Shown: positions 1-18,618 of the stretch, piece by piece
How positions within the stretch are numbered: the first letter of the stretch is position 1
How the letters are laid out: every line of letters begins with the position of its first letter
Virus record (IMG/VR): IMGVR_UViG_3300024359_000004
From: an uncultured virus (IMG/VR IMGVR_UViG_3300024359_000004)
Lineage: Duplodnaviria; Heunggongvirae; Uroviricota; Caudoviricetes
DNA length: 20,000 bases
Reading direction: 5' to 3' (one strand)
Program-made: the position numbers and the translations under genes
Notes under the pieces: generated by a model
Told to the model about the DNA's origin: nothing
The model's input: only the letters and a program-made list of their open reading frames with translations
Database searches by the model: none

Positions 1-776
1 AGACTATTACCTTTAGCAAGACTAATTGGGTTTAAATTAACTCTACCTAATGTATTTTCTTGTAACTCAAATGCTATATTATTACCAATAGCTGTTGCTA
101 GGTATCCAGCAGCAAGTTGACCTAATCTTGTATCATTTATTACACCTGTTGCAGTAAGTACTCTACCAGCTAATGAACTTCTAACATCAAAGTCAGATGT
201 TAATCCACCGCCATTTGGGTCAAATCCAATACCACCACCTTGAGTAACGCTACCAATTATATCTAACGGTTGAGTTGAAGGACCGCCAACATTTAAGTTA
301 TTATTTTCATCTAAATAAGAACCTGTTTGATTTCCAAATTTCTTATAAACTATATCAACTGGTGTTAACTTAGTAACATCTAAATATTGGTTGTTGATAA
401 CATTTGACTCTAAGTTATCTTCATTAGCTTCTAATAATTGAGCAGCAATATTACTATAAGGTTCATTATTCCATACATTACCAGCAATTGTTGAATTTGT
501 ATTACCTGGAAGGAAATTAACATTATATTGTTGGTAATCAATATTATCACCTTGGTATTTATTAACAGATATATTACCATCCTTATAAAAAACACCATCA
601 TCTTCTATATTAGGTGAACTTTGGACTGATAAAGGTTGTGTTGATGGGTCTGCTGGATACCCAATACCAACTAATTCTGATAATAAACCATTATCGGTTA
701 TTGTATCAGTAATTACATTTCTATTAAGTAATATATCCCTAAAAGTTGGTGATAACGTATTTATTCCATTTGGCAT
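1..776 (-). CDS. Virion structural protein downstream of tape measure (probable baseplate/hub region), 3' end outside window
   Basis: Not in the ORF track; translated by hand from ATG at 776 (MPNGINTLSPTFRDILLNRNVITDTITDNGLLSELVGIG...QENTLGRVNLNPISLAKGNS), open to position 1. GTATTTAT motif at 794-801 upstream. Function inferred from gene position only. Confidence 0.8.
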   Translation of the reverse strand, partial: MPNGINTLSPTFRDILLNRNVITDTITDNGLLSELVGIGYPADPSTQPLSVQSSPNIEDDGVFYKDGNISVNKYQGDNIDYQQYNVNFLPGNTNSTIAGNVWNNEPYSNIAAQLLEANEDNLESNVINNQYLDVTKLTPVDIVYKKFGNQTGSYLDENNNLNVGGPSTQPLDIIGSVTQGGGIGFDPNGGGLTSDFDVRSSLAGRVLTATGVINDTRLGQLAAGYLATAIGNNIAFELQENTLGRVNLNPISLAKGNS

Positions 777-5243: not shown

Positions 5244-5502
5244 GTCCTGTTTTTAATTTAGACTTTAATTGTTCACCACCTATCCTTGTGGTTCTAGAAC
5301 CCTTAGCGTTTTTATTCCTAGCACTCTGCATTTGCTCCTCCATCATTTCATTTTTCTTATTATTTTCATTAATAAGTGTTAATAAGAAAAACTTTCTTTC
5401 ATGGGTTGGTGCTGATAAAACGTCTTGATAAGTCATACCTAAATGTTTTATACAAATATATATCTCCTCTAATAGTCCTGGTTTATATTCTGGCGTTAGG
5501 CC
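5230..5502 (-). CDS. C-terminal extension of tail assembly chaperone (gpT-like / gp51-like), probably made by frameshift
   Basis: The track gives a 68-aa ORF from 5436, but the frame is open upstream through the T7 run: FF-GLTPEYKPGLLEEIYICIKHLG-MTYQDVLSAPTHERKFFL..., overlapping the end of the 374-aa gene in the +1 frame. Confidence 0.7.
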   Translation of the reverse strand, partial: GLTPEYKPGLLEEIYICIKHLGMTYQDVLSAPTHERKFFLLTLINENNKKNEMMEEQMQSARNKNAKGSRTTRIGGEQLKSKLKTGQIPN

Positions 5503-6607
5503 AAAAAAACCTTGGCGTAATGGGAAGAAACATATTTATGGACCCACCTCCAGGAGTCCTTACATCGATATTCATATCAATGCCACATTCTATCTTAGAT
5601 ATGTAATTTCTTAGACCTTGAGCATCTCCTACTCTCATAGAGTTTGCGAACTCTTTTATGTATGTTCTGTCTTTATTTCCATCAATATCAACTAACTGCC
5701 TTTCCAAAATAAGTGTTTGTTCTTCATTAATTGGATTATCTTTATTTTCTTCTACTAATTTCTCAAGATTCTCTAACTCACCAACTGTAAGCATCTTAAA
5801 CCTAACAGTTTTTTTACTTAACGGTAATTCATAAGTGAAAAGACCATCAGATTCTGGCTCAACACTTAAATTAACCGTCTTAAGGTCAGATAAGTTAACT
5901 TCAGTCTCAAAAGGTTCATCATTCTCATCATAAGCTAATATTGGATACATTTCACCATACCCTGTAGCTCTAAGCCAAATCATAATTGCATTTCTATCAC
6001 CAGGCACCAAATTCTCATACCTTAAATCTGGTTCAAGTAATTTTCTATTAATAAGAATCTCTAAAAATTCACCACTTTCAACTAAGTTTGGTGAAGTAAG
6101 AATATTTTCATCTGCTGTGGTTAAATAAGCAACCTTAACACCTTTCTTTTTAGTTTTATATAATTTACCCTCAGAAGGTAATGGAATAACATCAAATGGT
6201 TGATTAAATTGAGGCTGACTAATAGATTCAATGTAAGCATCATTATTATCCTTATTAGGTTCTTCATTAGAATCACCAGAATTATTATTATTATTATTAT
6301 TATTTGTTGGTGGTGGGGTTGTTGGAGGAGGTGTTCTATCAGCTCTCTTTTGTTCCATTTTTTTAGCTCTTTTCTCATCCATCTGTCTAGCAATTTCTTC
6401 TTGTTTTCTTAATTGCTCATCCCTATTCCTTATTAACTCTTCATTATTCTTTCTCATTTCAGCAGCAGCTTCAGCTTCTTTTTGAGAACCATAATCTGTT
6501 TCAAGATTATTTTCACTAGCTAATTGATTAGCAATTCTTTCACCAGTATCATTAGCTTCATTGATTTGTTCTTTTGTTGGAAAAACATTAGGTTTTACAT
6601 CACTCAT
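5483..6607 (-). CDS. Tail/baseplate hub assembly chaperone (T4 gp26-like)
   Basis: Motifs DVIPLPSEGKLY, VAYLTTADENIL, GDRNAIMIWLRATGYG, ELPLSKKTVRFKMLT and C-terminal FFWP are typical of gp26-like chaperones; lies between tube and tape measure. Has a ~130-aa charged/low-complexity N-terminal extension with PPPTTPPPT-N8. Confidence 0.75.
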   Translation of the reverse strand: MSDVKPNVFPTKEQINEANDTGERIANQLASENNLETDYGSQKEAEAAAEMRKNNEELIRNRDEQLRKQEEIARQMDEKRAKKMEQKRADRTPPPTTPPPTNNNNNNNNSGDSNEEPNKDNNDAYIESISQPQFNQPFDVIPLPSEGKLYKTKKKGVKVAYLTTADENILTSPNLVESGEFLEILINRKLLEPDLRYENLVPGDRNAIMIWLRATGYGEMYPILAYDENDEPFETEVNLSDLKTVNLSVEPESDGLFTYELPLSKKTVRFKMLTVGELENLEKLVEENKDNPINEEQTLILERQLVDIDGNKDRTYIKEFANSMRVGDAQGLRNYISKIECGIDMNIDVRTPGGGSINMFLPITPRFFWPNARI

Positions 6608-6676
6608 AATTAAAACGTTTTAATAAATTTTTATATCCTAAATCTACTTAATAAATATCCTAAGTAAAGTTTTTTA

Positions 6677-6707
6677 TTGCTTTTTTAATCATATAGTATT
6701 ATATTTG
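6677..6707 (+). promoter_or_regulatory. Bacteroidota primary-sigma-type promoter for the 71-aa gene
   Basis: TTG(6677-6679)-20 nt-TATATTTG(6700-6707), 23 nt upstream of the ATG at 6731. Confidence 0.75.
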
Positions 6708-6730
6708 GTTTAATATTAAAATTAATTATT

Positions 6731-6946
6731 ATGGAAATAAACGATATTAAAAAAGAATTATACAAACAAAAACCTACAGCTAACATTCTTTTTATTAGAA
6801 AAGGTGTTGCATATTACACAACAATAATTGAATTTGAAGAACAAACACATTCTGTTAGATTTGAAGTACCTGTAGACGATATGGGTGATGCTGATTTTTT
6901 CCCAGAAATGGATGGTAAATTATTAATTAGGTATATAAGTAAATAA
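6731..6946 (+). CDS. Small hypothetical protein, opposite in orientation to the tail genes
   Basis: 71 aa with its own promoter and terminator; protein-like composition (FEVPVDDMGDADFFPEMDGKLLIRYI). Confidence 0.8.
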   Translation: MEINDIKKELYKQKPTANILFIRKGVAYYTTIIEFEEQTHSVRFEVPVDDMGDADFFPEMDGKLLIRYISK

Positions 6947-6975
6947 AAAAAGACCTCTTAATTGAGGTCTTTTTA
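6943..6975. terminator. Bidirectional intrinsic terminator (copy 1 of 33-bp repeat)
   Basis: A7-GACCTC-ttaatt-GAGGTC-T5 between convergent genes. Confidence 0.85.
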
Positions 6976-6987
6976 TTTATTTTTTTT

Positions 6988-7623
6988 TTAATTACTAGGT
7001 ATAGTACCGTTAGTTGTTGCTATATCACCACGTTTAGATTGACCCATGTATTCTAATTTATAATCAGTAATGGTATAATCTGCATTATTACCTTCAAGTC
7101 TACCTTTTTCTTTAAGATATAATTTTTCTTCTTCAGCTTTTCTTTCTGCTTCTGATAATTTATGGTCTTCTAGTTCATACCATGAACCCCTAGTTTTTGC
7201 AGCATAGGGTTGCATTGTCATTGTACCCCCATCATCTGTTGCTAATGTTGCATATTGATTTGGTGAAGTAGGTTCTGCTACGTCTTCGGTTCCATAAGAA
7301 AATTTATAAACATGTGGGGTTTTCTTTTGACATGAAGCGGCACCACCAACAATAGCACAAACAACTAAAGTTTTAGCTACAGCATCTTTATAAGATTTAA
7401 ATTTTTCCCCAACACCTTTAATCAAATCTTCACCTAACATATCTTCTTTAATCATTAGATTAATTTCATTTGGGTTAACACCTAATTTATCCAATTCAAG
7501 TTTAATAACATCTGGTATATCACTATTAACATCTTCATTTATTAAACCCTTTGAAGTCAAATATCTTTGTTCAGCTAATAAATTAGCCTTTCTCATGTTT
7601 TTTGTTTTATCAAATCTTCTCAT
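6988..7623 (-). CDS. Hypothetical protein with internal lipoprotein-signal-like segment
   Basis: 211 aa; ATATTTAT at 7638-7645; residues ~74-101 KFKSYKDAVAKTLVVCAIVGGAAS-C98-QKK resemble a signal peptide II. Confidence 0.75.
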   Translation of the reverse strand: MRRFDKTKNMRKANLLAEQRYLTSKGLINEDVNSDIPDVIKLELDKLGVNPNEINLMIKEDMLGEDLIKGVGEKFKSYKDAVAKTLVVCAIVGGAASCQKKTPHVYKFSYGTEDVAEPTSPNQYATLATDDGGTMTMQPYAAKTRGSWYELEDHKLSEAERKAEEEKLYLKEKGRLEGNNADYTITDYKLEYMGQSKRGDIATTNGTIPSN

Positions 7624-7654
7624 AACAGTTTTTATTTATAAATATTAACAATAT

Positions 7655-7687
7655 ATAAAAAAAGACCCCTTAATTGAGGTCTTTTTA
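7655..7687 (-). terminator. Intrinsic terminator after tail tube (copy 2 of 33-bp repeat)
   Basis: Minus strand: A5-GACCTC-aattaa-GGGGTC-T7; 32/33 identical to 6943-6975. Confidence 0.85.
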
Positions 7688-7719
7688 AAATATTTAAATG
7701 TTTTAATTTTAAAAATTAA

Positions 7720-8208
7720 TTAGAATAATAAAATCGCTCTATCAAACCTTAAATCAGCTGTGATATCAGCGATAGCATCATCATCCATTGATAAGTCACC
7801 AAAGTTAACGTTAGTCAACATAGTTCCTTGTAGTAACCACTTTTCAATAACAACACCTGTTGGGTCAAGCATTTCTAAATCAACTTCTTTTTTATAACCA
7901 GCAGCATAACCTTGCCTACCAGTGATTGATTCTGATTGCAAACGCACCCATTCCATAATAGCTTGCGCAGCTGAAGGACCAATAGGGTCTCTAAATGTAA
8001 CTGAAATTGATTCCCAAGTAAATCTACCGATTACCCAGGTAGATGTGTTAAGAAATGGAATTTCTACTTCATTTTGTGTGATTGATGGTCTAGAAGCAGA
8101 CGCTAACCACCATTCTTGAATACCTAATTCAGCTGGAAATCTTAAAAGCCATCTATTCTTTTTCTTTGGTTCGTACTGAAAGGGCATTTTCATCAATAAA
8201 TCTGCCAT
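7720..8208 (-). CDS. Tail tube protein (T4 gp19-like)
   Basis: 162 aa directly downstream of sheath; EPKKKNRW, IPFLNTSTWVIGRFTWESISVTFRD, GYAAGYKKEVDLEMLDPTGVVIEKWLLQG, FGDLS, LRFDRA. Confidence 0.93.
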   Translation of the reverse strand: MADLLMKMPFQYEPKKKNRWLLRFPAELGIQEWWLASASRPSITQNEVEIPFLNTSTWVIGRFTWESISVTFRDPIGPSAAQAIMEWVRLQSESITGRQGYAAGYKKEVDLEMLDPTGVVIEKWLLQGTMLTNVNFGDLSMDDDAIADITADLRFDRAILLF

Positions 8209-8306
8209 GTTTTATAATTTTTTTTCTTTTATTTATTATTCTTTATTAATAAATATGTGATTTGATTTTTTTTATCTATTTTATCACATTTTATATTTAT
8301 TTTTTT

Positions 8307-8340
8307 TAATATTAAGGCTCAATTAAGAGCCCTAAGATTA
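8307..8340 (-). other. Hairpin between sheath and tube genes, no U-tail in the sense direction
   Basis: Minus strand TTAGGGCTC-ttaatt-GAGCCTTAA followed by an A run; shares the core CTCAATTAAGAG with the two terminator repeats, in inverted orientation. Confidence 0.6.
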
Positions 8341-8353
8341 AATATTATATCGA

Positions 8354-11194
8354 TTAAATATCATCGAAACTTGCACCAGTGTTCATAATGTTGAACTCAA
8401 CACAAATGAATTCTAAAGCTCTTGTTGGTTTCAAGAAGATTCTACCACATAATTCGTTTCTATCTCTAGATTCTGGAGAATCATCAAGAACCACTCTAAA
8501 GTCTGTAAGACCTCTATCAGCTCTAATGTTATCTAAGATTGGGTTAACAAGACCTAAGAACTGGTTTCTTACGATATCATCATTTTGTTCGAATAACAAT
8601 CTGATTGATACAGCAGAAATTAATTTTCTAGCTTGTAATAAAAGTCTTCTAACATTAATTCTATTAAGAGCAGTATCTTTAACTTGAAGTGTTTTGTTAC
8701 CCCAAATCTTAATACCTTCTGAAGCGAAAGTAGCAATTGGGTTAACTCTACCATCGTAAAGAGTATCTCTTTCTGCAAGTGTTAATTTCTTTCTTGCTTT
8801 AATAGCTTGAACATCACCTCTGTTTACACCAGCAACTGCGAACCATGGGAATGAAATGTTGTCTGTAAGTGCAATGTTTCTTACTACGTCTCTTGTAGGT
8901 GGAACGTAAATGTAAACATTGTTTTCAGCATCATTAATCTGAATCCAAGGCCAGTAAGTAGCTGTATAGTTAGAGTCAAATTGACTATCAAGTGTATCAA
9001 CAACATCCTCTGGTAATAAAACATCACCAGCAGCATCTGTATCTGGAGTAGTAACAATATAAAGTGAATCCGCTCTATCTTGTTCTACCATTTCGATAGC
9101 TTCCTCTACTAAGTTACTATTATCAAAAGTATCGATACCTGGTGTAGAGAATATATTAACATTTGTAGCTTCTGGGTTTTTGAAAGTCCAAATAGCCTCT
9201 AAATATGCGTAGTAATCAGAGTTAATACCTGTATCACCATTTGTTAATGCTCTTTGTGTAAATACATCACTTGATAAACCAGCTTGACCAGCAGTACCAT
9301 TTATAATATACTTATCTCTATTTGTTCTTCTTGTTCTATGTACATCCCATCCATCAAAACCACCATATGGTGCGAATGTGAATTTTCTAGCATATACTTT
9401 TTCATAGTCAGTACCAACAACACCAGAATCACTCCTAAATTCAGCGTTACCTGTGTCAAATTCGTAAACTGGACTATAAGTACCACCAGTATTATTAATT
9501 ACGATTTCAACATTATCAATAGTTGCACCAGTAGCGTCAACATCCATATGGAAACCTTTAGTTAAACCAGTCCATTCATTTAAATCACCAACTGTTGGAA
9601 TACCCTTATAATCGAAAAAGTCTTGGTCAATACCTTTAGTCTCAGAAAGACCTAAATAGAATTTTCTCTTATTTTCGAAAGCACCATAAGTTTGTTTATA
9701 TTCAATTGTTGGTGTTTGAACTGAAGTGTTACCATTAGTTTGGTAATCTCTAACTGGGAATCCTACGAAACCAGCTGGGAACGCATCAGAAGTATCTGAT
9801 TCTTCCTCAAGTTCAATTAATACATAACTTGAACGTGAAGCAAATTCACCATCAAGTGTACCAACTCTCTTAGCAACATAGTTATTAGACGTTGGGTCCA
9901 TACTACATCTTGTAAATCTTTCAAATACTACAGGTTTAGCATCAGTATCATCATAAGCTCTGATTTCAATATCAAATTCTTTATCATTTAATCTAATATT
10001 CTTGATAGATATTTTAAATTGTCTGTTAGCAGCATCACCATCAGATATTGTGTGAAGTCTGAAAAGTCTTAATACCTTATTACCTCTTAACTCAGACACA
10101 ACCCAAGGACTAACCGCTGGTTGATATTCTTGTAAATAATCATTAAAGTCATCACCATAGTTAACTAATGAGTCAATATTAATACCTCTCACTTGGTCAT
10201 TATCAATATAGTCTTCTAACATTTCACTAAATAATTCTTCAACGAATAATGCAGTCTGACCATCTTGAGCAGCTCTACCTAATACTTTAGTAATATAATT
10301 ATTTTTAGTCTTATCAAGTGATAATGAATACGAGAAATTACCTTGAGTTGTAGAATCACCAGTGATTGTGAAATTACCTAATACATTAGATTCAGCTGTT
10401 GTAACTGAAGGGTCAAACCCTATATCAGTAGAACCTGTAATTTGATGTCTAACGAATTCATCAGCATCAACAGTTGCTCTACTTCTTAATAATGCAACAA
10501 TCTTATCTTCTACATTTGAGAACCCAGCTCCAGAGTAGTGAACTGTAACCCCTGAAGTTGTACCAGTTTGTAAAGAACCAAAAAGTCCTTCAGCAACTAC
10601 TTTATGATTAATACTAGCACCACTAAATGTATCACCAGACTTATCGAAAACAGGTCCTATAAGTGTTGGTGTAGCAGCAGTTGAAGCTGTAGCTAAATAC
10701 GCTAGTTCATTTGTTAATAAACCTTCATCCCATAATGATTGTACTAATGGGTCACTAGAAACAACAGTAGTAAGAGTACCACTATCAGCAGTATATGAAA
10801 TTAAAGTAGCATCTGTGATACCACCACCAGTAGTACCAGTAGTAGAACCATCTAAAGCTGCGTCAAGTGAAACACCCCAAGCTAAACCAGCATCATAACC
10901 AGAAAAACCAAGTACTCTTGTTACGAATAATTGGTTAGATTGTGATAAATACGATTTAGCGATGTAAGGTAATTCATATTTAGGCGCACCTGTATCTTTT
11001 ATTTTTGTAGCGTTGAGCCCACCAAAAAATGATGTGAACTCGTCATAGTTTGACACGAAAATCGGTTGGAAAGCTGGGCCCTTAGTTGTCTCACCAACTA
11101 AACCCAAAGTTGTTACACCAACTTGTCGCGTTACGAAAGTTAAGTCTCTTTCTGAAGTATAAACTCCAGGACTTACAAATACCTTATCAGCCAT
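8354..11194 (-). CDS. Contractile tail sheath protein (T4 gp18-like)
   Basis: 946 aa; N-terminal SPGVYTSERD...GETTKGPAFQP; C-terminal YTATYWPW, YVPPT, PWFAVAGVNRG, RDTLYDGRVNPI, IWGNKTLQ, LNRINVRRLLL, LFEQND, FLKPTRALEFI. Confidence 0.97.
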   Translation of the reverse strand: MADKVFVSPGVYTSERDLTFVTRQVGVTTLGLVGETTKGPAFQPIFVSNYDEFTSFFGGLNATKIKDTGAPKYELPYIAKSYLSQSNQLFVTRVLGFSGYDAGLAWGVSLDAALDGSTTGTTGGGITDATLISYTADSGTLTTVVSSDPLVQSLWDEGLLTNELAYLATASTAATPTLIGPVFDKSGDTFSGASINHKVVAEGLFGSLQTGTTSGVTVHYSGAGFSNVEDKIVALLRSRATVDADEFVRHQITGSTDIGFDPSVTTAESNVLGNFTITGDSTTQGNFSYSLSLDKTKNNYITKVLGRAAQDGQTALFVEELFSEMLEDYIDNDQVRGINIDSLVNYGDDFNDYLQEYQPAVSPWVVSELRGNKVLRLFRLHTISDGDAANRQFKISIKNIRLNDKEFDIEIRAYDDTDAKPVVFERFTRCSMDPTSNNYVAKRVGTLDGEFASRSSYVLIELEEESDTSDAFPAGFVGFPVRDYQTNGNTSVQTPTIEYKQTYGAFENKRKFYLGLSETKGIDQDFFDYKGIPTVGDLNEWTGLTKGFHMDVDATGATIDNVEIVINNTGGTYSPVYEFDTGNAEFRSDSGVVGTDYEKVYARKFTFAPYGGFDGWDVHRTRRTNRDKYIINGTAGQAGLSSDVFTQRALTNGDTGINSDYYAYLEAIWTFKNPEATNVNIFSTPGIDTFDNSNLVEEAIEMVEQDRADSLYIVTTPDTDAAGDVLLPEDVVDTLDSQFDSNYTATYWPWIQINDAENNVYIYVPPTRDVVRNIALTDNISFPWFAVAGVNRGDVQAIKARKKLTLAERDTLYDGRVNPIATFASEGIKIWGNKTLQVKDTALNRINVRRLLLQARKLISAVSIRLLFEQNDDIVRNQFLGLVNPILDNIRADRGLTDFRVVLDDSPESRDRNELCGRIFLKPTRALEFICVEFNIMNTGASFDDI

Positions 11195-11237
11195 TCTTTA
11201 CTTATTTTAAATTTTTATTATTTTCAGTTATCTAATA

Positions 11238-11245
11238 ATAAATAT
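11238..11245 (-). promoter_or_regulatory. Putative phage late promoter ATATTTAT (representative copy, upstream of sheath)
   Basis: Same sense-strand motif 4-45 nt upstream of eight starts: 794-801 (GTATTTAT), 5191-5198, 6651-6658, 7638-7645, 8249-8256, 11238-11245, 11527-11534 (+), 18629-18636. Confidence 0.7.
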
Positions 11246-11268
11246 GTAGTAAAAAACCAAAAGAATTT

Positions 11269-11291
11269 ATATGGTCTTAAAAAGACCATAT
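11269..11291. promoter_or_regulatory. Perfect 10-bp inverted repeat in divergent intergenic region (candidate operator)
   Basis: ATATGGTCTT-aaa-AAGACCATAT between the sheath start and the RHH-like gene. Confidence 0.5.
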
Positions 11292-11345
11292 TTAATGAGC
11301 TTTTTTTCTTACTTTTGTCATACTTATATATAAATACTATATATT

Positions 11346-11501
11346 ATGTCTATAAAACGTACAAAAAACCTTAAAATCACGCCAAACACACATAAGGCGC
11401 TTAAAGAATATTGTCAGGAAAACGGTCTTAAGATGTTCGCATTTGTTGAAAAAATAATCAAGGAGTCATGTAAAAAACCAACTGACATTTATGGTGAGTA
11501 A
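11346..11501 (+). CDS. Small ribbon-helix-helix-like DNA-binding protein
   Basis: Not in the ORF track; hand-translated 51 aa MSIKRTKNLKITPNTHKALKEYCQENGLKMFAFVEKIIKESCKKPTDIYGE. Alternating strand (KNLKI), helix, G turn, helix fits the RHH pattern. Confidence 0.75.
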   Translation: MSIKRTKNLKITPNTHKALKEYCQENGLKMFAFVEKIIKESCKKPTDIYGE

Positions 11502-11538
11502 TTTTAATTTTTATTAGTATTATAACATATTTATAAAT

Positions 11539-12729
<1,191 letters not shown>

Positions 12730-12734
12730 AAAAT

Positions 12735-13574
12735 ATGAAAGATTTAATAAAACTTTATGAAAACTTTTGTTTTTTAAAGGGTATCCCTTTTAAATTAGAT
12801 GATAGTGTTAAGAGTTATGATGATACAACTCTTTTTTGTCCAGCTGGTATGCAACAATTTAAGGACAAATTTAAAAATCCTGACAACACCACAATAGCAA
12901 ATATTCAATCTTGTATTAGACTTAATGATTTGGATGAAATTGGTGATGGCACCCATATGTTACATTTTAAAATGATTGGGTTATTTTCTTTTGGTGAAAT
13001 GACACTTAATGAGGCTGTTGATTTTTGGGTGGAGTTTATTAGGGGTTACTTAGGTATAAAGATTGATTATGTTACGATTCATCCAGATAAATTTGATAAT
13101 TGGAAGTGGTTATATGAACGTCATCGTATCCCTATTAAATTAGATAGTGAATGTATTTGGTCTGATGGTGAAATGGGTGGTTATTGTACAGAGTTTTATC
13201 ATGATAATGTTGAGATTGGTAATATCGTAAATACAATGGATAAGTTTATTGATGTTGGTTTTGGATTCTCCAGAATTAATGATATTATTAATGGTAAAAA
13301 TGAATTAACAAAAAACGATATACTTATTGACGCTATTAACAAGATAATTGAATCTGGATTTAAACCAGGACCACAAAAACAAGGTTACATACTTAGGAAA
13401 CTTCTCAGACAACTATATGTAGGTGGTGGTAGTATTGAACACCCATTATTTACAAAAGAGGTTGAAAGACAAGAAAAGGCTAAGGTTAGATACGAAAGAC
13501 TTAAAGATAAACATTCTGATAAACCAAAAGAATGGTGGTTTGATACTCATGGTATTGACTTAGACGAAATGTAA
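12735..13574 (+). CDS. alaS: Miniature alanyl-tRNA synthetase-like protein (catalytic plus compacted tRNA-recognition region; no editing or C-Ala domain)
   Basis: Collinear AlaRS motifs: DTTLFCPAGMQQFK, QSCIRLNDLDEIG..H..HFKMIGLFSFG, W...GGYCTEFY, EIGNIV, IDVGFGFSRI, GFKPGPQKQGYILRKLLR, FDTHGI; only 279 aa. Confidence 0.88.
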   Translation: MKDLIKLYENFCFLKGIPFKLDDSVKSYDDTTLFCPAGMQQFKDKFKNPDNTTIANIQSCIRLNDLDEIGDGTHMLHFKMIGLFSFGEMTLNEAVDFWVEFIRGYLGIKIDYVTIHPDKFDNWKWLYERHRIPIKLDSECIWSDGEMGGYCTEFYHDNVEIGNIVNTMDKFIDVGFGFSRINDIINGKNELTKNDILIDAINKIIESGFKPGPQKQGYILRKLLRQLYVGGGSIEHPLFTKEVERQEKAKVRYERLKDKHSDKPKEWWFDTHGIDLDEM

Positions 13575-13623
13575 TCTAATTACCCTTAATTCAGTGTAAT
13601 TAATTTAACACAACAGAATAATT

Positions 13624-14304
13624 ATGAATATAATATTATTAATAAGAAGTTATGATAGAGGTAATTACTTAATAAATACGATATCTTCTATAATTAAATC
13701 AGATATTAATTTATGCGATAAAAGATACATATATGACGATAACTCAAAAGATAAAATAGTAAAAGAAATATTAGAAGGAAAAGATTTAAAATTACCAAAC
13801 AAAGAATTTGATGTAGTTATTGGTGATAAAAATTTAGGTTGTAAGTATTCATTCATAGAAGCATTAAAACATATTAAAAACGAAAATAAAGATAATAAAG
13901 ATTATCTAGTTATTACTATTGATAATGATGTTATAGTCCAGAAAGACTGGATTAATAAAACATTAGATATGTATGATAAAATAAAAAATATCTTTAATAC
14001 TGATAATTTTTTATTAACAGGTTTTAACCCAACAAACTCTCATTTAAACATGATTAAAGATTATGGTAATTTCTACCAAAAAGAAACTTGTGGCGGTATT
14101 AATTTAATATTCCATAGTAATATGATAGATTTTATTATGGAAGGATGGGAGAAAGGTGATAATGACTGGGGTGTTATAGATAAATTAAAAGAGAAAGGAT
14201 TTCCCTTATTTTGTTTTAAAGAATCTATAATTAACCACATAGGTAAGTTAGGTTTATTTTCAGGTAATTTGGGTTATGACGTAGATAAAAAATTTAAACC
14301 TTAA
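13624..14304 (+). CDS. Glycosyltransferase, GT2-like (GT-A fold)
   Basis: ILLIRSYDRGNYLINTISSI, YIYDDNSKD, TIDNDVI (DxD), C-terminal HIG. Confidence 0.85.
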   Translation: MNIILLIRSYDRGNYLINTISSIIKSDINLCDKRYIYDDNSKDKIVKEILEGKDLKLPNKEFDVVIGDKNLGCKYSFIEALKHIKNENKDNKDYLVITIDNDVIVQKDWINKTLDMYDKIKNIFNTDNFLLTGFNPTNSHLNMIKDYGNFYQKETCGGINLIFHSNMIDFIMEGWEKGDNDWGVIDKLKEKGFPLFCFKESIINHIGKLGLFSGNLGYDVDKKFKP

Positions 14305-14936
14305 ATATCGTAACCATATTTTTTAGATATTCCTTTTAATTCATTATATAACTTACTATTTTTAATATCATTTATTAAAGTTTCGTTATCTATTTTTATC
14401 ACCTTTTCTTCTTTTTTTGTGTTTACCTTTTTATCTAATGGTTTTATTTTTTTACCTAAAAATTTGGATAGTGAATCATAATTAATATCCTCTAAATTTA
14501 ATATTAATCTGTTTAAATTATAACCCTCAATCATTTTAATCCAACCAATGTAATAAGACATAGTTTTTTCAACTGAGGATTCATAATTTAAATCTACATA
14601 TTTTTTAATTAATTGCACATATTCTGAGTTTTTCATATTTTCATCACTAAAAACATCTAATTCAACCCATGATTTAATCACATTTATTGGGTTTCTAACT
14701 ATATGGATAAATTTTATATTTTCGTTATATCCTTTAATTGTTGTTATAAAAGGTACCGATAACCAACTACTCTCTGATTTTAAATTGCTAGTTATAATTT
14801 GTTTTCTATAAGATTCAAGTGTTGCTGGAACACCAAAAACAGATTCGTGACCGCAACGAATATTATTCATAGTCAAAAGCTCTGACATAAATCCAGTCCC
14901 ACTCCTACCTGTTCCAATAATTAAATAATCAATCAT
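14301..14936 (-). CDS. Sulfotransferase family protein
   Basis: IIGTGRSGTGFMSELL (5'-PSB loop), GHE, FIHIVRNPINVIKS (3'-PB motif); its stop shares the palindrome TTAA (14301-14304) with the convergent GT2 gene. Confidence 0.8.
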   Translation of the reverse strand: MIDYLIIGTGRSGTGFMSELLTMNNIRCGHESVFGVPATLESYRKQIITSNLKSESSWLSVPFITTIKGYNENIKFIHIVRNPINVIKSWVELDVFSDENMKNSEYVQLIKKYVDLNYESSVEKTMSYYIGWIKMIEGYNLNRLILNLEDINYDSLSKFLGKKIKPLDKKVNTKKEEKVIKIDNETLINDIKNSKLYNELKGISKKYGYDI

Positions 14937-14949
14937 ACTTCAAATTTTT

Positions 14950-17900
14950 TTAAAAATCCCAACCATCCCTTAAATGACATCTTACATAACCAAATAAATG
15001 TATTTGTTTACCATTTTTATATTTGTCTAACATAGTTTTATAAAACAAGATATCCTCACTTGTATTACCTTCACTAACTACATTAGTCCATTTAACATCA
15101 CATGTTTTTTTATGTGATATTAAACCAGGTGATTGTAAAATCAAACTTCTTTTAACATAACTCCTAACCCACCTACTATCTAATCCATTAATCAAAGATG
15201 ATTTATTAGTTAAATGTCTATCAAAAAGCACATTATAAAATTTAACCTTATTAGGTGTTAATACCGCAAAATTATCCCACCAACATCTATTTATTATCCA
15301 ATCTAAATTAAAATTATATTCCCAATACTTTAAAAGTATCTCTAAATAATTTTTTGTTAAAAAATCATCACTATCCATATAAGTTATAATATCACCCTCA
15401 GACATATCAACACCTATTTGTCTAGGTTCACCAACATAATTTATAGTTTCAGAGTCTTTTTCATACATTTTTTTTGAGCTATTCTCATATAACTTAAATT
15501 TAACTCTATCATTTTCCTTATAATTTTCATTATATAATTTTTCAGTAATTTTACAATTATCTGAAATAACAATTAACTCTGTATTCTTATTAGTTTGGCT
15601 TAAAAATGAGTTAACCGCCCTAATAAACTTTCTTTCTGGTTCAGTTCTACTCCCTGGGTAATCACCTAAATAAGATTGCATTACAACGGATATTTTTATA
15701 CCTTTCTTACGATTGTAAGATTTTCTCCAATGCCCTACATGATTATGTATAAAATATTCATCACATTCATTTTTGGTTAAATATTTTGGTTTATCATCTA
15801 ACTTGTCAAAAACCTCACTTACAACGTCTGGACCAGTTGTATACAAAATGTCATAATCTTCCTTTATCTCTAAATCTTTTCTTTCCTTACACAAATCTAA
15901 TATTTTTTGCATATTTTTAGAATGTGGTTTAGACATCATAAAATAGTTTGAAATCCTAAGATTACATTCAGGTATATTATTTCTAATAGGTAATTTTTTA
16001 GTGGTTTCACAAAAATAATCATCAGTTGTTGTCTCCTCAAAAAATAAGTCTTCTAAATGATTATTTTCTTCATATGTTTTATAAAACCCTTTTTTACTTA
16101 ATATATCTAAATCAACATATATACCACCAAAATACTTTAAAATGATATATCTAGCATAATCAGATTTTTGTATATTATGTACATAACCTGTGTAAATATC
16201 TACCTCTTCCTCATTCATTATTTTTAAAACATCACTTTCCCTCCAAAGTATTGTATGAAAGTTTGGGTTATATTTTTTAAACTCTTTTAAATCTGTTCTT
16301 GAGTTACTTGGGTATTCATTATCATATAACAAAAGTCTATGAATTATTGGTGGTATTTTATCTTGATTCTTATATTCTTTTAAAATGTAATTTACCCCCA
16401 TAAAATCATGATAAAAATCATAAGACACTTCTTCATTAGTTTCTTCTGAGTCAGACTTAATAACATCAACCAGTGAAGTCTTTGGTGATAATATCATACC
16501 TTCATTTTCCTTTAAGTATTCTCTAATTAATAGTTTATAATTTTCACTATTAAATAAATCTTTTAAACCCTCATATAATTCAGACTTAAACCCAATATTT
16601 TTAAAATCTAAATTAGAATGTGCTATATAATCCTTTTTAAAATGAATAACCTTACGTAAAGTTTCATTAGTTAAATCTTTAACAAAACCAGTTATTATAG
16701 AATTATCATATAGTTTATCACTAAAATACTCAAATGTTTTAAATAATTCAACTAACCAATCTTGTCTCATTATTAAATCATTATCTAACTTTATTAAGTA
16801 ATCACACTTAAAGTTATTATATAGAATATCTAAACCTAATTTTTGATTTTGAAGTTTTGTATCTTTATTTGTTTTTGAAATTTTAATAGTATTAAATTTT
16901 GTGAATTTATAATTATTAATTAAATCTATAACATCTTTAGGTAAATGGTTATCACATATAAATAAAACTAATAATTTTTTATTTATAATCACATTATTTA
17001 AACTATCTAACATTTTTTTAGTTATATGATAATTATCAGTTATGTGAATAAATAAACCACTATCATATTCTAAATTAATATTTTGATATTCTTCTGGTGT
17101 GTAACCCTTATCATTTATTAAAACACCATCAAAAGAATCGAATAAAGGTAAATTGTTTTTAGTGTTAAGGTTGAAATATGAAACACCTTCGTATTTTTTA
17201 CTATATTTTATTATTCTTTCATAAAGGTTATTATAACCCCATGTATTATCTGAATGGACTCTATAAACATAAAGTTCTGGTTTATATAAGACTGATAAAT
17301 CGTCTTTTATATTTTCAATAAAAGTAGTATCTTCACCTTTTTTTAACGATGGATATAAAGTTTTAAGTTCGGACTTTTTATACATAAAAGAACCCTCCCA
17401 ACCAATAAATGAAATTCTTTTACATTCTAATAATTCATTTTTTACATTATCATAAACTAACCAACTACTTAATATTGACCCATTTTTATTATTTATTTTT
17501 AAGTCTCTAAATTGTTCCCAAAGTCTTAAAGGGTGATACCAATCATCATCGTCCCATTGACATACATATTCACCACTAGATTCATTTATAGATATATTTC
17601 TTAACTCACCTAAAGTTTTTTTATTTTTTGATGAATCTACTTCAATAAATTTAATATCGATATTATTTTTAAATTCTTTAATTACCTTGTTTATCTCAGT
17701 ATTATCGTTCTCGTAAATAATTATTAATTCCTTATTTGGGTATATTTGTTTATTATAACATGTTATAGTGTTTTTTAATAAATCATAACCATTTTTAGTG
17801 ACACATAAACAAGATATTTTAGGTAATAAAACCATCCCACTTTTTTTGTAATATTCTTTAGTATGGTTTGAATTTTCACTATAATTTAAATTTAATAAAT

Positions 17901-18618
17901 CATGAATTGCCACCACTTTTTTTATGTATTCCAATGAAGAGTAATGTTTATCTTGCCACCAAGTACCATCATATAAATGCATTAAGTATGAATATTGAAC
18001 GTTTTTTGAAATAACCCCATTTGATATTTCATAAAAAGTCATAGGGTTAAAATATAAATTATCTAAAATAGTTATTTCATTTTTATTTTCATATCTTTCA
18101 TAAACCCTATTAAAAAAAAGAGGCCCAGTCATATTTAAAACATCATCAGTATCGTTTGAATTAATTTTATCTGAATCTATGTTTCTAACAATATCATCTA
18201 TCAATTCTTTTATAAAACTAGTATTAGGTTTGGAAATAATTACAGCATTAGATAGAATATAGTCAGTGTTAAAATTTAAAGCGTTTTTCCTATCCTCCTC
18301 ACATATAACAACATCATTTATATTCAATAAATCTTCAATACTCTTTAAAGGTAATACATCTAAATCAACATATATCCCACCAAATTTATAAACATATAAG
18401 AGTCTTATAAAATCTAACTTCATAACAACCCTATCAAATTTATCTATAATGATTTTATATTGTGGAAAATATTTATTTACAAACGATTCATTAGTTTTAT
18501 CACTATAGAATTTTACTTTTAACCCTTTATTTAATAAAACCCACCTCTTTAAAATGAATTCTTGTTTTTCTGTTAAGTTTTCATCTTTCCAAGTAATATG
18601 TAATATTTTATTGTTCAT
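14950..18618 (-). CDS. Five-domain glycosyltransferase polyprotein (GT32-GT2-GT2-GT32-GT2)
   Basis: 1222 aa; two Och1/GT32-like domains (D..R....K.GGIYVDLD, TGP) and three GT2-like domains (KISCLCVT...QWDDDDWY; KLDNDLIMRQDW; KISVVMQSY...YMDSDDF). Confidence 0.88.
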   Translation of the reverse strand: MNNKILHITWKDENLTEKQEFILKRWVLLNKGLKVKFYSDKTNESFVNKYFPQYKIIIDKFDRVVMKLDFIRLLYVYKFGGIYVDLDVLPLKSIEDLLNINDVVICEEDRKNALNFNTDYILSNAVIISKPNTSFIKELIDDIVRNIDSDKINSNDTDDVLNMTGPLFFNRVYERYENKNEITILDNLYFNPMTFYEISNGVISKNVQYSYLMHLYDGTWWQDKHYSSLEYIKKVVAIHDLLNLNYSENSNHTKEYYKKSGMVLLPKISCLCVTKNGYDLLKNTITCYNKQIYPNKELIIIYENDNTEINKVIKEFKNNIDIKFIEVDSSKNKKTLGELRNISINESSGEYVCQWDDDDWYHPLRLWEQFRDLKINNKNGSILSSWLVYDNVKNELLECKRISFIGWEGSFMYKKSELKTLYPSLKKGEDTTFIENIKDDLSVLYKPELYVYRVHSDNTWGYNNLYERIIKYSKKYEGVSYFNLNTKNNLPLFDSFDGVLINDKGYTPEEYQNINLEYDSGLFIHITDNYHITKKMLDSLNNVIINKKLLVLFICDNHLPKDVIDLINNYKFTKFNTIKISKTNKDTKLQNQKLGLDILYNNFKCDYLIKLDNDLIMRQDWLVELFKTFEYFSDKLYDNSIITGFVKDLTNETLRKVIHFKKDYIAHSNLDFKNIGFKSELYEGLKDLFNSENYKLLIREYLKENEGMILSPKTSLVDVIKSDSEETNEEVSYDFYHDFMGVNYILKEYKNQDKIPPIIHRLLLYDNEYPSNSRTDLKEFKKYNPNFHTILWRESDVLKIMNEEEVDIYTGYVHNIQKSDYARYIILKYFGGIYVDLDILSKKGFYKTYEENNHLEDLFFEETTTDDYFCETTKKLPIRNNIPECNLRISNYFMMSKPHSKNMQKILDLCKERKDLEIKEDYDILYTTGPDVVSEVFDKLDDKPKYLTKNECDEYFIHNHVGHWRKSYNRKKGIKISVVMQSYLGDYPGSRTEPERKFIRAVNSFLSQTNKNTELIVISDNCKITEKLYNENYKENDRVKFKLYENSSKKMYEKDSETINYVGEPRQIGVDMSEGDIITYMDSDDFLTKNYLEILLKYWEYNFNLDWIINRCWWDNFAVLTPNKVKFYNVLFDRHLTNKSSLINGLDSRWVRSYVKRSLILQSPGLISHKKTCDVKWTNVVSEGNTSEDILFYKTMLDKYKNGKQIHLFGYVRCHLRDGWDF

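Follow-up and report, generated by a model that had tools for sequence, protein, structure and literature searches.

The DNA described here (in the following called the window: 20,000 nucleotides of IMG/VR record IMGVR_UViG_3300024359_000004, an uncultured member of the Caudoviricetes) has a GC content of 22-36% and comes from a large marine phage, a myovirus. One of its genes encodes a protein of 279 amino acids that is homologous to alanyl-tRNA synthetase (AlaRS) and that probably acts as a miniature AlaRS: an enzyme without editing domain that charges tRNA-Ala and recognises it by the acceptor stem only. An intact adenylation site, the retention of the segments that read the acceptor stem and a linkage to tRNA-Ala genes together make up the selection pattern that a charging enzyme would show. 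The protein and its relatives are referred to as mini-AlaRS.

A preliminary description, made from the letters of the window only, had noted that the aminoacylation motifs of AlaRS occur in order, and this is confirmed by a Pfam profile, by phmmer searches against PDB, by a family profile and by the alignment of a structure model. The Pfam profile PF01411 (tRNA-synt_2c), proposed as a check in that description, matches with an E of 6e-20 and 71.7 bits (cut-off 30.3); the alignment is confined to amino acids 27-123, which correspond to profile positions 26-136 of 552. With the TIGR00344 alaS model the protein scores 79.9 bits, far under the equivalog cut-off of 457, which is not reached. Among PDB chains, AlaRS is the sole match in a phmmer search (best E 4e-13): with AlaRS of Aquifex aeolicus, CIR of motif 2 pairs with CLR, FKMIGLFSFG with FEMLGNFSFG and IDVGFGFSR with IDTGMGLER. 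Further downstream, PGPQKQGYILRK of mini-AlaRS pairs with PSNEGRGYVIRR of the A. aeolicus enzyme, and Pro213 is therefore positioned under the Asn of P-S-N. A profile built from 29 family members finds AlaRS in PDB at an E of 6.5e-42 and pairs wwlDTHGi at the C-terminus with aYDTYGF of the A. aeolicus enzyme, a stretch that is weak by itself (the PDB search with family profile A2 was less informative than the one with A1).

The fold agrees with these alignments. An AlphaFold2 model calculated from the family alignment is confident throughout, with a mean predicted local distance difference test score of 93.3, at least 70 for every residue, and a predicted template modelling (TM) score of 0.85. 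The top Foldseek matches of the model are AlaRS catalytic fragments (E 2e-16, query TM 0.76). In VIA-align, 278 of its 279 residues superimpose on E. coli AlaRS 1..411 (Z 25.4, root mean square deviation 4.2), which supports the earlier by-eye estimate of a compaction from about 410 residues to 279, and the model can also be placed on A. aeolicus AlaRS 1..400 and on A. fulgidus AlaRS 59..459 from a tRNA complex (Z 20.8). The alpha subunits of glycyl-tRNA synthetase (GlyRS; GlyQ) come behind AlaRS: with a Z of 16.5 over 170 residues, compared to a Z of 25 over 278 residues for AlaRS, GlyQ was rejected as the closest relative. PF01411, VIA-align and the motif alignments thus all show a class II catalytic fold that includes motifs 2 and 3, and the C-terminal DTHGI helix of the model is placed where AlaRS has (Y)DTYG.

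All residues that align with the Ala/ATP site of AlaRS are conserved across the family, whose members are about 275-310 amino acids long. Among the 197 unique members examined, R62, D65, E153, E160 and R180 are invariant, and W142, N163, V165, D173, G175 and G177 are each present in 196. The Ser179 of the window's protein is a clade variant: the family has E in 121, S in 45, Q in 23 and D in 8 members at this position. What is missing in comparison to AlaRS can be read from the alignment of the profile to PDB chains: behind the motif-2 Arg the four residues GGKH are gone, the catalytic core has lost a loop of about 19 residues and a hairpin of about 13, motif 3 is followed by a gap of about 27-31 residues, and a large part of the helical tRNA-recognition domain is absent. 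The latter is not kept as a complete domain; its four helices (amino acids 193-272) correspond approximately to E. coli 250-411, and nothing remains past about 411. The editing domain and C-Ala are lacking, as the protein ends at residue 279.

Two positions are of particular interest, the Asn and the Asp that in AlaRS read G3 and U70 of the tRNA (presumably N303 and D400 in E. coli, with R69 and D235 as the motif-2 Arg and the motif-3 Asp; the alignments themselves do not give these numbers). The Asn of P-S-N..GY.LRR is not present and Pro213 stands in its place, as had been seen by eye. Within the family the position has N in 85 members, P in 82, S in 10, H in 7 and A in 6, and because N and P alternate across the family, Pro213 is a variant of its clade and does not indicate a changed identity. 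The basic helix that follows is largely conserved (R221 in 179, K222 in 166 and R225 in 178 of the 197 members). The Asp is kept, again as described before: D270 is placed at the reader of U70 by the VIA-align range, which extends to E. coli 411, and by the weak stretch of the profile alignment. At this position the family has D in 162, E in 14 and N in 6 members, flanked by T271 (189) and G273 (193). At the Asn position, the residues N, P, H and G all occur in members beside tRNA-Ala genes, and at the Asp position the same is true of D, N, G and S. The changed tRNA identity that the preliminary description had considered is therefore not supported, either by the N/P distribution or by the neighbouring tRNA-Ala genes, most of which have G3:U70 (see below).

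The short length is a conserved property of the family. In a word-indexed search, 1477 candidates of 153-489 amino acids yielded 997 proteins at E<=1e-3; the best 120 of these are 259-309 amino acids long, 55-99% identical and all have PF01411. In an exhaustive search of representatives at 50% identity, 46 clusters were found at E<=1e-30, the longest of at most 403 amino acids, and the first protein of more than 500 amino acids appears at an E of 1.4e-20, the first of more than 750 at 9.4e-18. The family is under purifying selection: the ratio of non-synonymous to synonymous substitution rates (dN/dS) is 0.090 (window versus locus L005), 0.071 and 0.082 for the three pairs with unsaturated dS, while six further pairs were saturated and one, with a dS of 2.05, gave 0.127. 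A phylogenetic tree of 64 rows, a quick IQ-TREE without bootstraps from which three poor bacterial rows (L147, L152, L154) were left out, unites 42 mini proteins in a single clade (SH-aLRT 98, stem 0.63) that is placed within the full-length AlaRS of bacterial type. The divergent member P0217 is outside the mini clade with an unsettled position, and P0171 (425 amino acids) joins the clade on a long branch. AlaRS-like proteins of 419-590 amino acids were considered as intermediates and rejected: seven of eight fall among ordinary AlaRS in the tree. The label 'phage' for database proteins is derived from the viral loci and from Atlas cluster taxonomy (79% viruses) and not assigned sequence by sequence. 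The mini-AlaRS family thus has a single origin and is not the product of a recent truncation of a full-length AlaRS. The idea of purposeful minimisation rather than decay is supported by the survey of homolog lengths, by the invariant catalytic residues and by the dN/dS values of 0.07-0.09.

A missing half could be encoded elsewhere, as in a split enzyme. We searched four whole records of relatives, which are 27-88% complete: G001 (232.5 kb, 88% complete by CheckV, with a mini-AlaRS 93% identical to that of the window), G002 (205 kb), G003 (138 kb) and G004 (88 kb). None of the four has a match to the editing domain PF07973 (tRNA_SAD) or a second PF01411 piece, the mini gene being the only PF01411 match in each. 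An editing domain and a second AlaRS piece are therefore likely absent from the genomes of these relatives, and the earlier view of an enzyme without editing domain stands. The same four records have no tmRNA (transfer-messenger RNA) over cut-off and no match to the class IIa core PF00587.

Mini-AlaRS genes are linked to tRNA-Ala genes. We compared 71 viral loci (70 plus LR745206.1), which dereplicate to 27 lineages at 80% identity, and ARAGORN identifies tRNAs in the flanks of 30 of the 71 loci. The share of tRNA-Ala rises towards the gene, from 33/228 overall to 21/86 within 2 kb and 15/51 within 1 kb, and within 1 kb tRNA-Ala is the commonest tRNA type. After dereplication, 15 of the 27 lineages have a tRNA within 2 kb and seven of these have tRNA-Ala; Ala accounts for 10/37 tRNAs within 1 kb and for 11/140 tRNAs farther away (odds ratio 4.3, one-sided Fisher p 0.003). 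A scan for tRNAs, which the preliminary description had proposed for the whole genome, finds none in the window. In whole records of relatives (G001-G009), tRNA-Ala(UGC) is present in six of nine, even in records with only one or two tRNAs: it is one of 7 tRNAs in G002 (205 kb), of 8 in G003 (138 kb) and of 9 in G009 (108 kb), is accompanied by a single tRNA-Arg in G004 (88 kb) and a single tRNA-Asp in G005 (120 kb), and is the only tRNA in G006 (84 kb). Of the three records without tRNA-Ala, two are only 27-30% complete; these three are G007 (54 kb), with one tRNA at the site where locus L027 shows tRNA-Arg, G008 (49 kb), with no tRNA, and G001 (232.5 kb), with 7 tRNAs. The G001 record ends 127 bp past tRNA-Asn, and the cluster in the syntenic G003 runs on to tRNA-Ala, 2.7 kb further.

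The co-carried tRNAs have the identity pair of tRNA-Ala. All six tRNA-Ala(UGC) genes from the whole records have G3:U70 and A73, and among the 26 unique tRNA-Ala sequences found at the loci, 22 have G3:U70. The four sequences without the pair are doubtful (two are 88-nucleotide 'AGC' genes and two have only 5 of 7 acceptor pairs), and among 182 non-Ala tRNAs only one has G:T at position 3:70. The 88-nucleotide tRNA-Ala(AGC) predictions of ARAGORN (L047 8567-8654; L051 and L069 9338-9425) have a long extra arm and U3:A70 and are possibly misassigned or unusual tRNAs. A further oddity is the 7,038-base contig L048, which has mini-AlaRS and its flanking tRNAs twice in inverted orientation, probably an assembly artefact.

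A tmRNA is also a substrate of AlaRS, and three loci have a tmRNA close to the mini gene: a permuted tmRNA (RF04321) lies 300 bp downstream of mini-AlaRS in L010 (11138-11316) and L011 (11144-11318), with 66.8 and 64.2 bits, and L066 has a standard tmRNA (RF00023, 120 bits; 12976-13324) at a distance of 2.2 kb downstream. Alphaproteobacteria typically have the permuted form, and this would agree with the bacterial paralogs of mini-AlaRS described below. In the huge phages LR745206.1 (L001 9208-9945, + strand), L030 and L045, mini-AlaRS has another neighbour among tRNA-Gly genes: a class II synthetase core of 246 amino acids (cluster c28; PF00587 E 2e-14), whose best PDB relative is GlyRS (E 7e-8) and which looks like a second minimised synthetase. 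Like the tRNA-Ala genes, both the tmRNAs and this core suggest a connection of mini-AlaRS with tRNA.

The remaining surroundings of the gene differ from lineage to lineage, as emerged from the neighbourhood survey that the preliminary description had suggested. The protein encoded directly upstream in the window (Table 1) has an HPD motif in its J-domain, a run of 12 Asn and its DOT1-like domain at the C-terminus, and its gene is the only neighbour common to all eight loci of the window's lineage. We do not count this gene as a link to tRNA: PHROGs assigns it to 'tRNA methyltransferase' (E 5e-6), but its PDB relatives are DOT1/protein-lysine methyltransferases. The glycan block downstream (13624-18618) is limited to the window's closest relatives; at 93% and 82% identity of mini-AlaRS, the GT2, sulfotransferase and 1222-amino-acid glycosyltransferase genes are replaced by other genes. 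In a lineage of about 21 loci, mini-AlaRS is positioned between RecA/UvsX and a group of 5'-3' exonuclease, DnaB-like helicase, ribonucleotide reductase, gp32 and ClpP, and in many huge-phage lineages it is inside tRNA arrays. No protein partner is common to the 27 lineages; the recurrent neighbour cluster c12 is an HNH endonuclease, and the PHROG matches of cluster c47 are 'integrase' and families without known function. PADLOC has no match for mini-AlaRS, one Rhizobium homolog and three neighbours. Upstream, on the opposite strand, the tail module spans 5483-11194 and includes a baseplate-hub-like gene; the tail sheath protein is unusually long and only its C-terminal approximately 320 residues match sheath families. 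A scan of 11150-14400 for promoters and terminators returned 18 promoter-like sites, compared to 27 expected from shuffles, and is uninformative, and no Shine-Dalgarno sequence is visible upstream of the coding sequence. Contigs from four RNA-library runs match parts of the gene with 0 mismatches (for example 12429-13149 and 12832-13423), which is no proof of transcription because DNA may occur in such libraries.

Table 1. Mini-AlaRS, its motifs and neighbouring genes in the window
Feature	Position	Strand	Remarks
Mini-AlaRS coding sequence	12735..13574	+	open reading frame, 279 amino acids plus stop codon
Condensed class II catalytic core, amino acids 1-190, motif 2 to motif 3	12735..13304	+	profile-to-PDB alignment, model secondary structure
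Arg62, motif-2 Arg of AlaRS	12918..12920	+	alignment; 197/197 members
Trp142, active-site Trp (..fW..G..)	13158..13160	+	alignment; 196/197
E160-I-G-N163-I-V165, EIxNxV	13212..13229	+	E 197/197, N 196/197, V 196/197
D173-V-G175-F-G177-F-S-R180, DTGMGLER, motif 3	13251..13274	+	D, G, G 196 each, R 197 of 197
Residual tRNA-recognition region, amino acids 191-279	13305..13571	+	four helices versus ~190 residues in bacterial AlaRS
P211-G-P213-QKQGYILRKLLR225, PSNEGRGYV(I/L)RR	13365..13409	+	alignment; Pro213 at Asn (G3 reader) position
W267-W-F-D270-T-H-G273, YDTYGF, Asp = U70 reader	13533..13553	+	hidden Markov model alignment, VIA-align
Upstream gene, 396 amino acids, J-domain and DOT1/protein-lysine-methyltransferase-like domain	11539..12729	+	5 bases before mini-AlaRS coding sequence
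GT2 gene	13624-14304	+	
Sulfotransferase gene	14301-14936	-	
Glycosyltransferase, 1222 amino acids	14950-18618	-	two GT2 and two DXD sugar-binding regions
Tail sheath gene, 946 amino acids	8354-11194	-	
Tail tube gene	7720-8208	-	

Mini-AlaRS also occurs in bacteria. We collected 74 bacterial loci (L081-L154), mostly from Rhizobium, Neorhizobium, Phyllobacterium, Inquilinus and Caulobacteraceae; 71 of these encode proteins with 51-61% identity and three are outliers with 32-46%. The paralogs are found on chromosomes and chromids, among them 90 Rhizobium plasmids/chromids where PGAP names the product 'alanine--tRNA ligase-related protein'; examples are RL_RS26335 on pRL9 of R. johnstonii 3841, L155 8025-8927 and L156 7974-8927. 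The proteins have about 300 amino acids including an N-terminal extension of about 25, are encoded by stand-alone genes, and are nested within the phage and metagenome members in the tree. Their neighbours vary and include toxin-antitoxin systems, ABC transporters and, once, on one plasmid, an extra rpsU; in Neorhizobium, tRNA-Met is 4-5 kb away. For one of the bacterial neighbourhood surveys, open reading frames were read in about half of the GC-rich loci.

We propose that the retained class II core would bind ATP and alanine and form alanyl-adenylate, and that the tRNA would be engaged by the stump of the recognition domain, in which the basic helix GY(V/I)LRKLLR and, at the C-terminus, a helix with DT(H/Y)G remain. 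As the protein has neither editing domain nor C-Ala, recognition would be restricted to the acceptor stem and tRNA-Ala mischarged with Ser or Gly would be left to host factors. Likely substrates are the phage's G3:U70 tRNA-Ala(UGC), the tRNA-Ala of the host and, in a few lineages, the phage tmRNA. The gene might be retained to secure Ala-tRNA for the phage's own tRNA during takeover.

Several points weigh against tRNA charging. The protein has about 120-130 aminoacylation-domain residues fewer than the smallest fragments reported to be active, which are the Tupanvirus AlaRS (TuAlaRS, 461 amino acids) and A. aeolicus N453 as described in PMC10036535, and the losses include four residues in the loop of motif 2 as well as the part past E. 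coli position 411 or so. The alpha subunit of N. equitans AlaRS alone is reported in the same paper to have weak and non-specific activity (PMC10036535). The absence of editing would make mischarging with Ser or Gly a cost. The positions that read G3 and U70 are variable within the family. Concerning the linkage to tRNA, the 20-kb window has neither a tRNA nor any Rfam family, 41 of the 71 loci have no tRNA in their flanks, tRNA-Ala in the window's lineage is elsewhere in the genome, away from mini-AlaRS, and the closest large relative, G001, has no tRNA-Ala on its contig, which stops inside the syntenic tRNA cluster. Finally, none of the 74 bacterial loci has a tRNA-Ala within 6 kb of the paralog and their neighbours are variable, a context that hints at a role without a dedicated tRNA. 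It is mainly because of these bacterial paralogs that we keep a non-canonical role open.

Such a role could be that of an alanine-adenylating ligase which passes alanine to a protein, a carrier, a glycan or a small molecule instead of a tRNA, similar to synthetase paralogs that have a new acceptor but still the old adenylation site. The intact adenylation site combined with the loss of about half of the tRNA-recognition domain fits this, as do the bacterial paralogs standing alone and the glycosyltransferase and sulfotransferase genes that adjoin mini-AlaRS in the window; the preliminary description had taken a glycan or virion protein as plausible acceptor from the neighbours. This last argument is not supported, given that the glycan genes do not stay next to mini-AlaRS in relatives, that other lineages have it in a replication module or in tRNA arrays, and that there is no neighbour shared by the 27 lineages, the recurrent one being an HNH endonuclease. 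In addition, both segments that read the acceptor stem are still under selection, and tRNA-Ala is enriched nearby and co-carried even by phages with one or two tRNAs. Because of this association with tRNA-Ala, we prefer ordinary tRNA-Ala charging and consider a non-tRNA acceptor unlikely. Less likely again is relaxed or error-prone charging, in which the enzyme would lack G3:U70 specificity or would use Ser and Gly too, feeding either a tolerant proteome or a side reaction of aminoacyl-tRNA. Neither the editing domain PF07973 nor AlaX was found in the records of the relatives, the Asn and Asp reader positions are variable, the alpha subunit of N. equitans lacks specificity when alone, and phages do use aminoacyl-tRNA outside translation, as described for Mom, which uses Gly-tRNA-Gly (PMC13219725). 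The residues of the alanine pocket are invariant, however, TuAlaRS is reported to be G3:U70-specific without the Asn and the Asp (PMC10036535), and G3:U70 is present in all co-carried tRNA-Ala apart from the four doubtful sequences, as is expected if the pair is still read.

The protein could also use charged Ala-tRNA-Ala, like the transferase AcmF of ascamycin biosynthesis, or sequester it as a non-catalytic binder. AcmF is truncated too, with only the aminoacylation and tRNA-recognition domains (PMC12945691), and a binder of tRNA-Ala would fit the linkage to tRNA-Ala equally. AcmF, by its published description, has lost the equivalents of N219 and D232, and these are exactly the residues that the mini-AlaRS family has kept (Asn163 and Asp173 in 196 of 197 members, the Arg residues of motifs 2 and 3 in all 197), a pattern to be expected from selection for adenylate synthesis; for this reason we regard an AcmF-like function as improbable. 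That a full-length alaS was captured and that the gene is its functionless, decaying rest is hardly credible: the short length and the score far under the alaS equivalog cut-off are what a remnant would show, and they are outweighed by best homologs of 259-309 amino acids at 55-99% identity, dN/dS values of 0.07-0.09, 46 clusters of at most 403 amino acids at E<=1e-30 and a model that is confident throughout.

Going beyond tRNA-Ala charging as such, we suggest tentatively, with somewhat less than even confidence, that mini-AlaRS is a fully functional stand-alone synthetase which reads the acceptor stem, and that it forms with its G3:U70 tRNA-Ala(UGC) a portable two-gene module for alanine charging, kept by marine T4-like and jumbo phages even if they have no more than one or two tRNAs, extended to a phage tmRNA in some lineages and domesticated on the chromids of Rhizobiales. 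If this is true, the 'operational RNA code' of the acceptor stem would have in mini-AlaRS a minimal enzyme of natural origin. We know of no natural aminoacyl-tRNA synthetase smaller than 279 amino acids; tryptophanyl-tRNA synthetase, with about 330, is usually called the smallest. Mini-AlaRS is 40% smaller than TuAlaRS and cut inside the aminoacylation domain itself, and the family is widespread, with hundreds of members in marine and other phages in addition to the 90 Rhizobium plasmids. An active enzyme would set a lower size limit for specific tRNA charging, far below any AlaRS shown to work, would be a natural test of the minimum of protein needed for reading G3:U70, and would bear on why phages have a synthetase along with its tRNA and how they tolerate the loss of proofreading. 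If inactive on tRNA, it would be a new synthetase-derived enzyme with an intact adenylation site and another acceptor.

Databases list the family under automatic names only, and our literature searches found no paper on an AlaRS of about 280 amino acids from phages or Rhizobium and no functional study of the Rhizobium 'alanine--tRNA ligase-related protein'. One family member is encoded in the 634,780-bp genome LR745206.1, an accession series that presumably belongs to the huge-phage study of Al-Shayeb et al. According to that study, huge phages have up to 15 synthetases, which are proposed to charge phage tRNA variants, and its main text mentions neither 'alanyl' nor a minimised form (Al-Shayeb et al. 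2020, PMC7162821). Like these synthetase genes, mini-AlaRS is found alongside phage tRNAs; unlike them, it is also present in the much smaller T4-like marine phages and on Rhizobium chromids.

AlaRS is described as the sole synthetase whose four-domain prototype is retained throughout biology (PMC10036535), and known shorter forms differ from mini-AlaRS in several ways. The best structural matches, E. coli AlaRS 1-441 (3hxu/3hxz) and the A. aeolicus fragment (1riq/N453), both with a Z of 25, share the active-site residues, but are laboratory truncations of enzymes of about 875 amino acids and are 160-180 residues longer than the phage protein. In N. equitans, the alpha subunit acts together with a beta subunit that supplies the remainder of the enzyme, whereas no second piece was found in the four records of phage relatives. 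AcmF has, as published, lost most residues for the activation of ATP and Ala (N219Q, D232E) and has Ala-tRNA as donor (PMC12945691), unlike the phage family with its aligned Asn163 and Asp173. The closest tested relative is the mini-AlaRS of Tupanvirus, which is presented as the only natural AlaRS that consists of the aminoacylation domain only and works normally, charging both tRNA and microhelix with G3:U70 (Antika et al. 2023, PMC10036535). TuAlaRS and the phage protein are both encoded by a virus, have no editing or C-Ala domain, are reduced to the aminoacylation domain, with motifs 1-3 kept in TuAlaRS, and have a Pro at the position of the conserved Asn that reads G3, and both likely recognise the acceptor stem only. 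In TuAlaRS, P321 and T416 occupy the Asn and Asp positions; G3:U70 is still required and mutating these residues has no effect (PMC10036535). The differences are in origin and size: TuAlaRS derives from the AlaRS of a eukaryotic host and has no Asp (Thr416), while the phage family is of bacterial type with the Asp in 162 of 197 members, and TuAlaRS is 182 residues longer and has an intact tRNA-recognition domain, while the phage family has lost about 120-130 residues within the aminoacylation domain.

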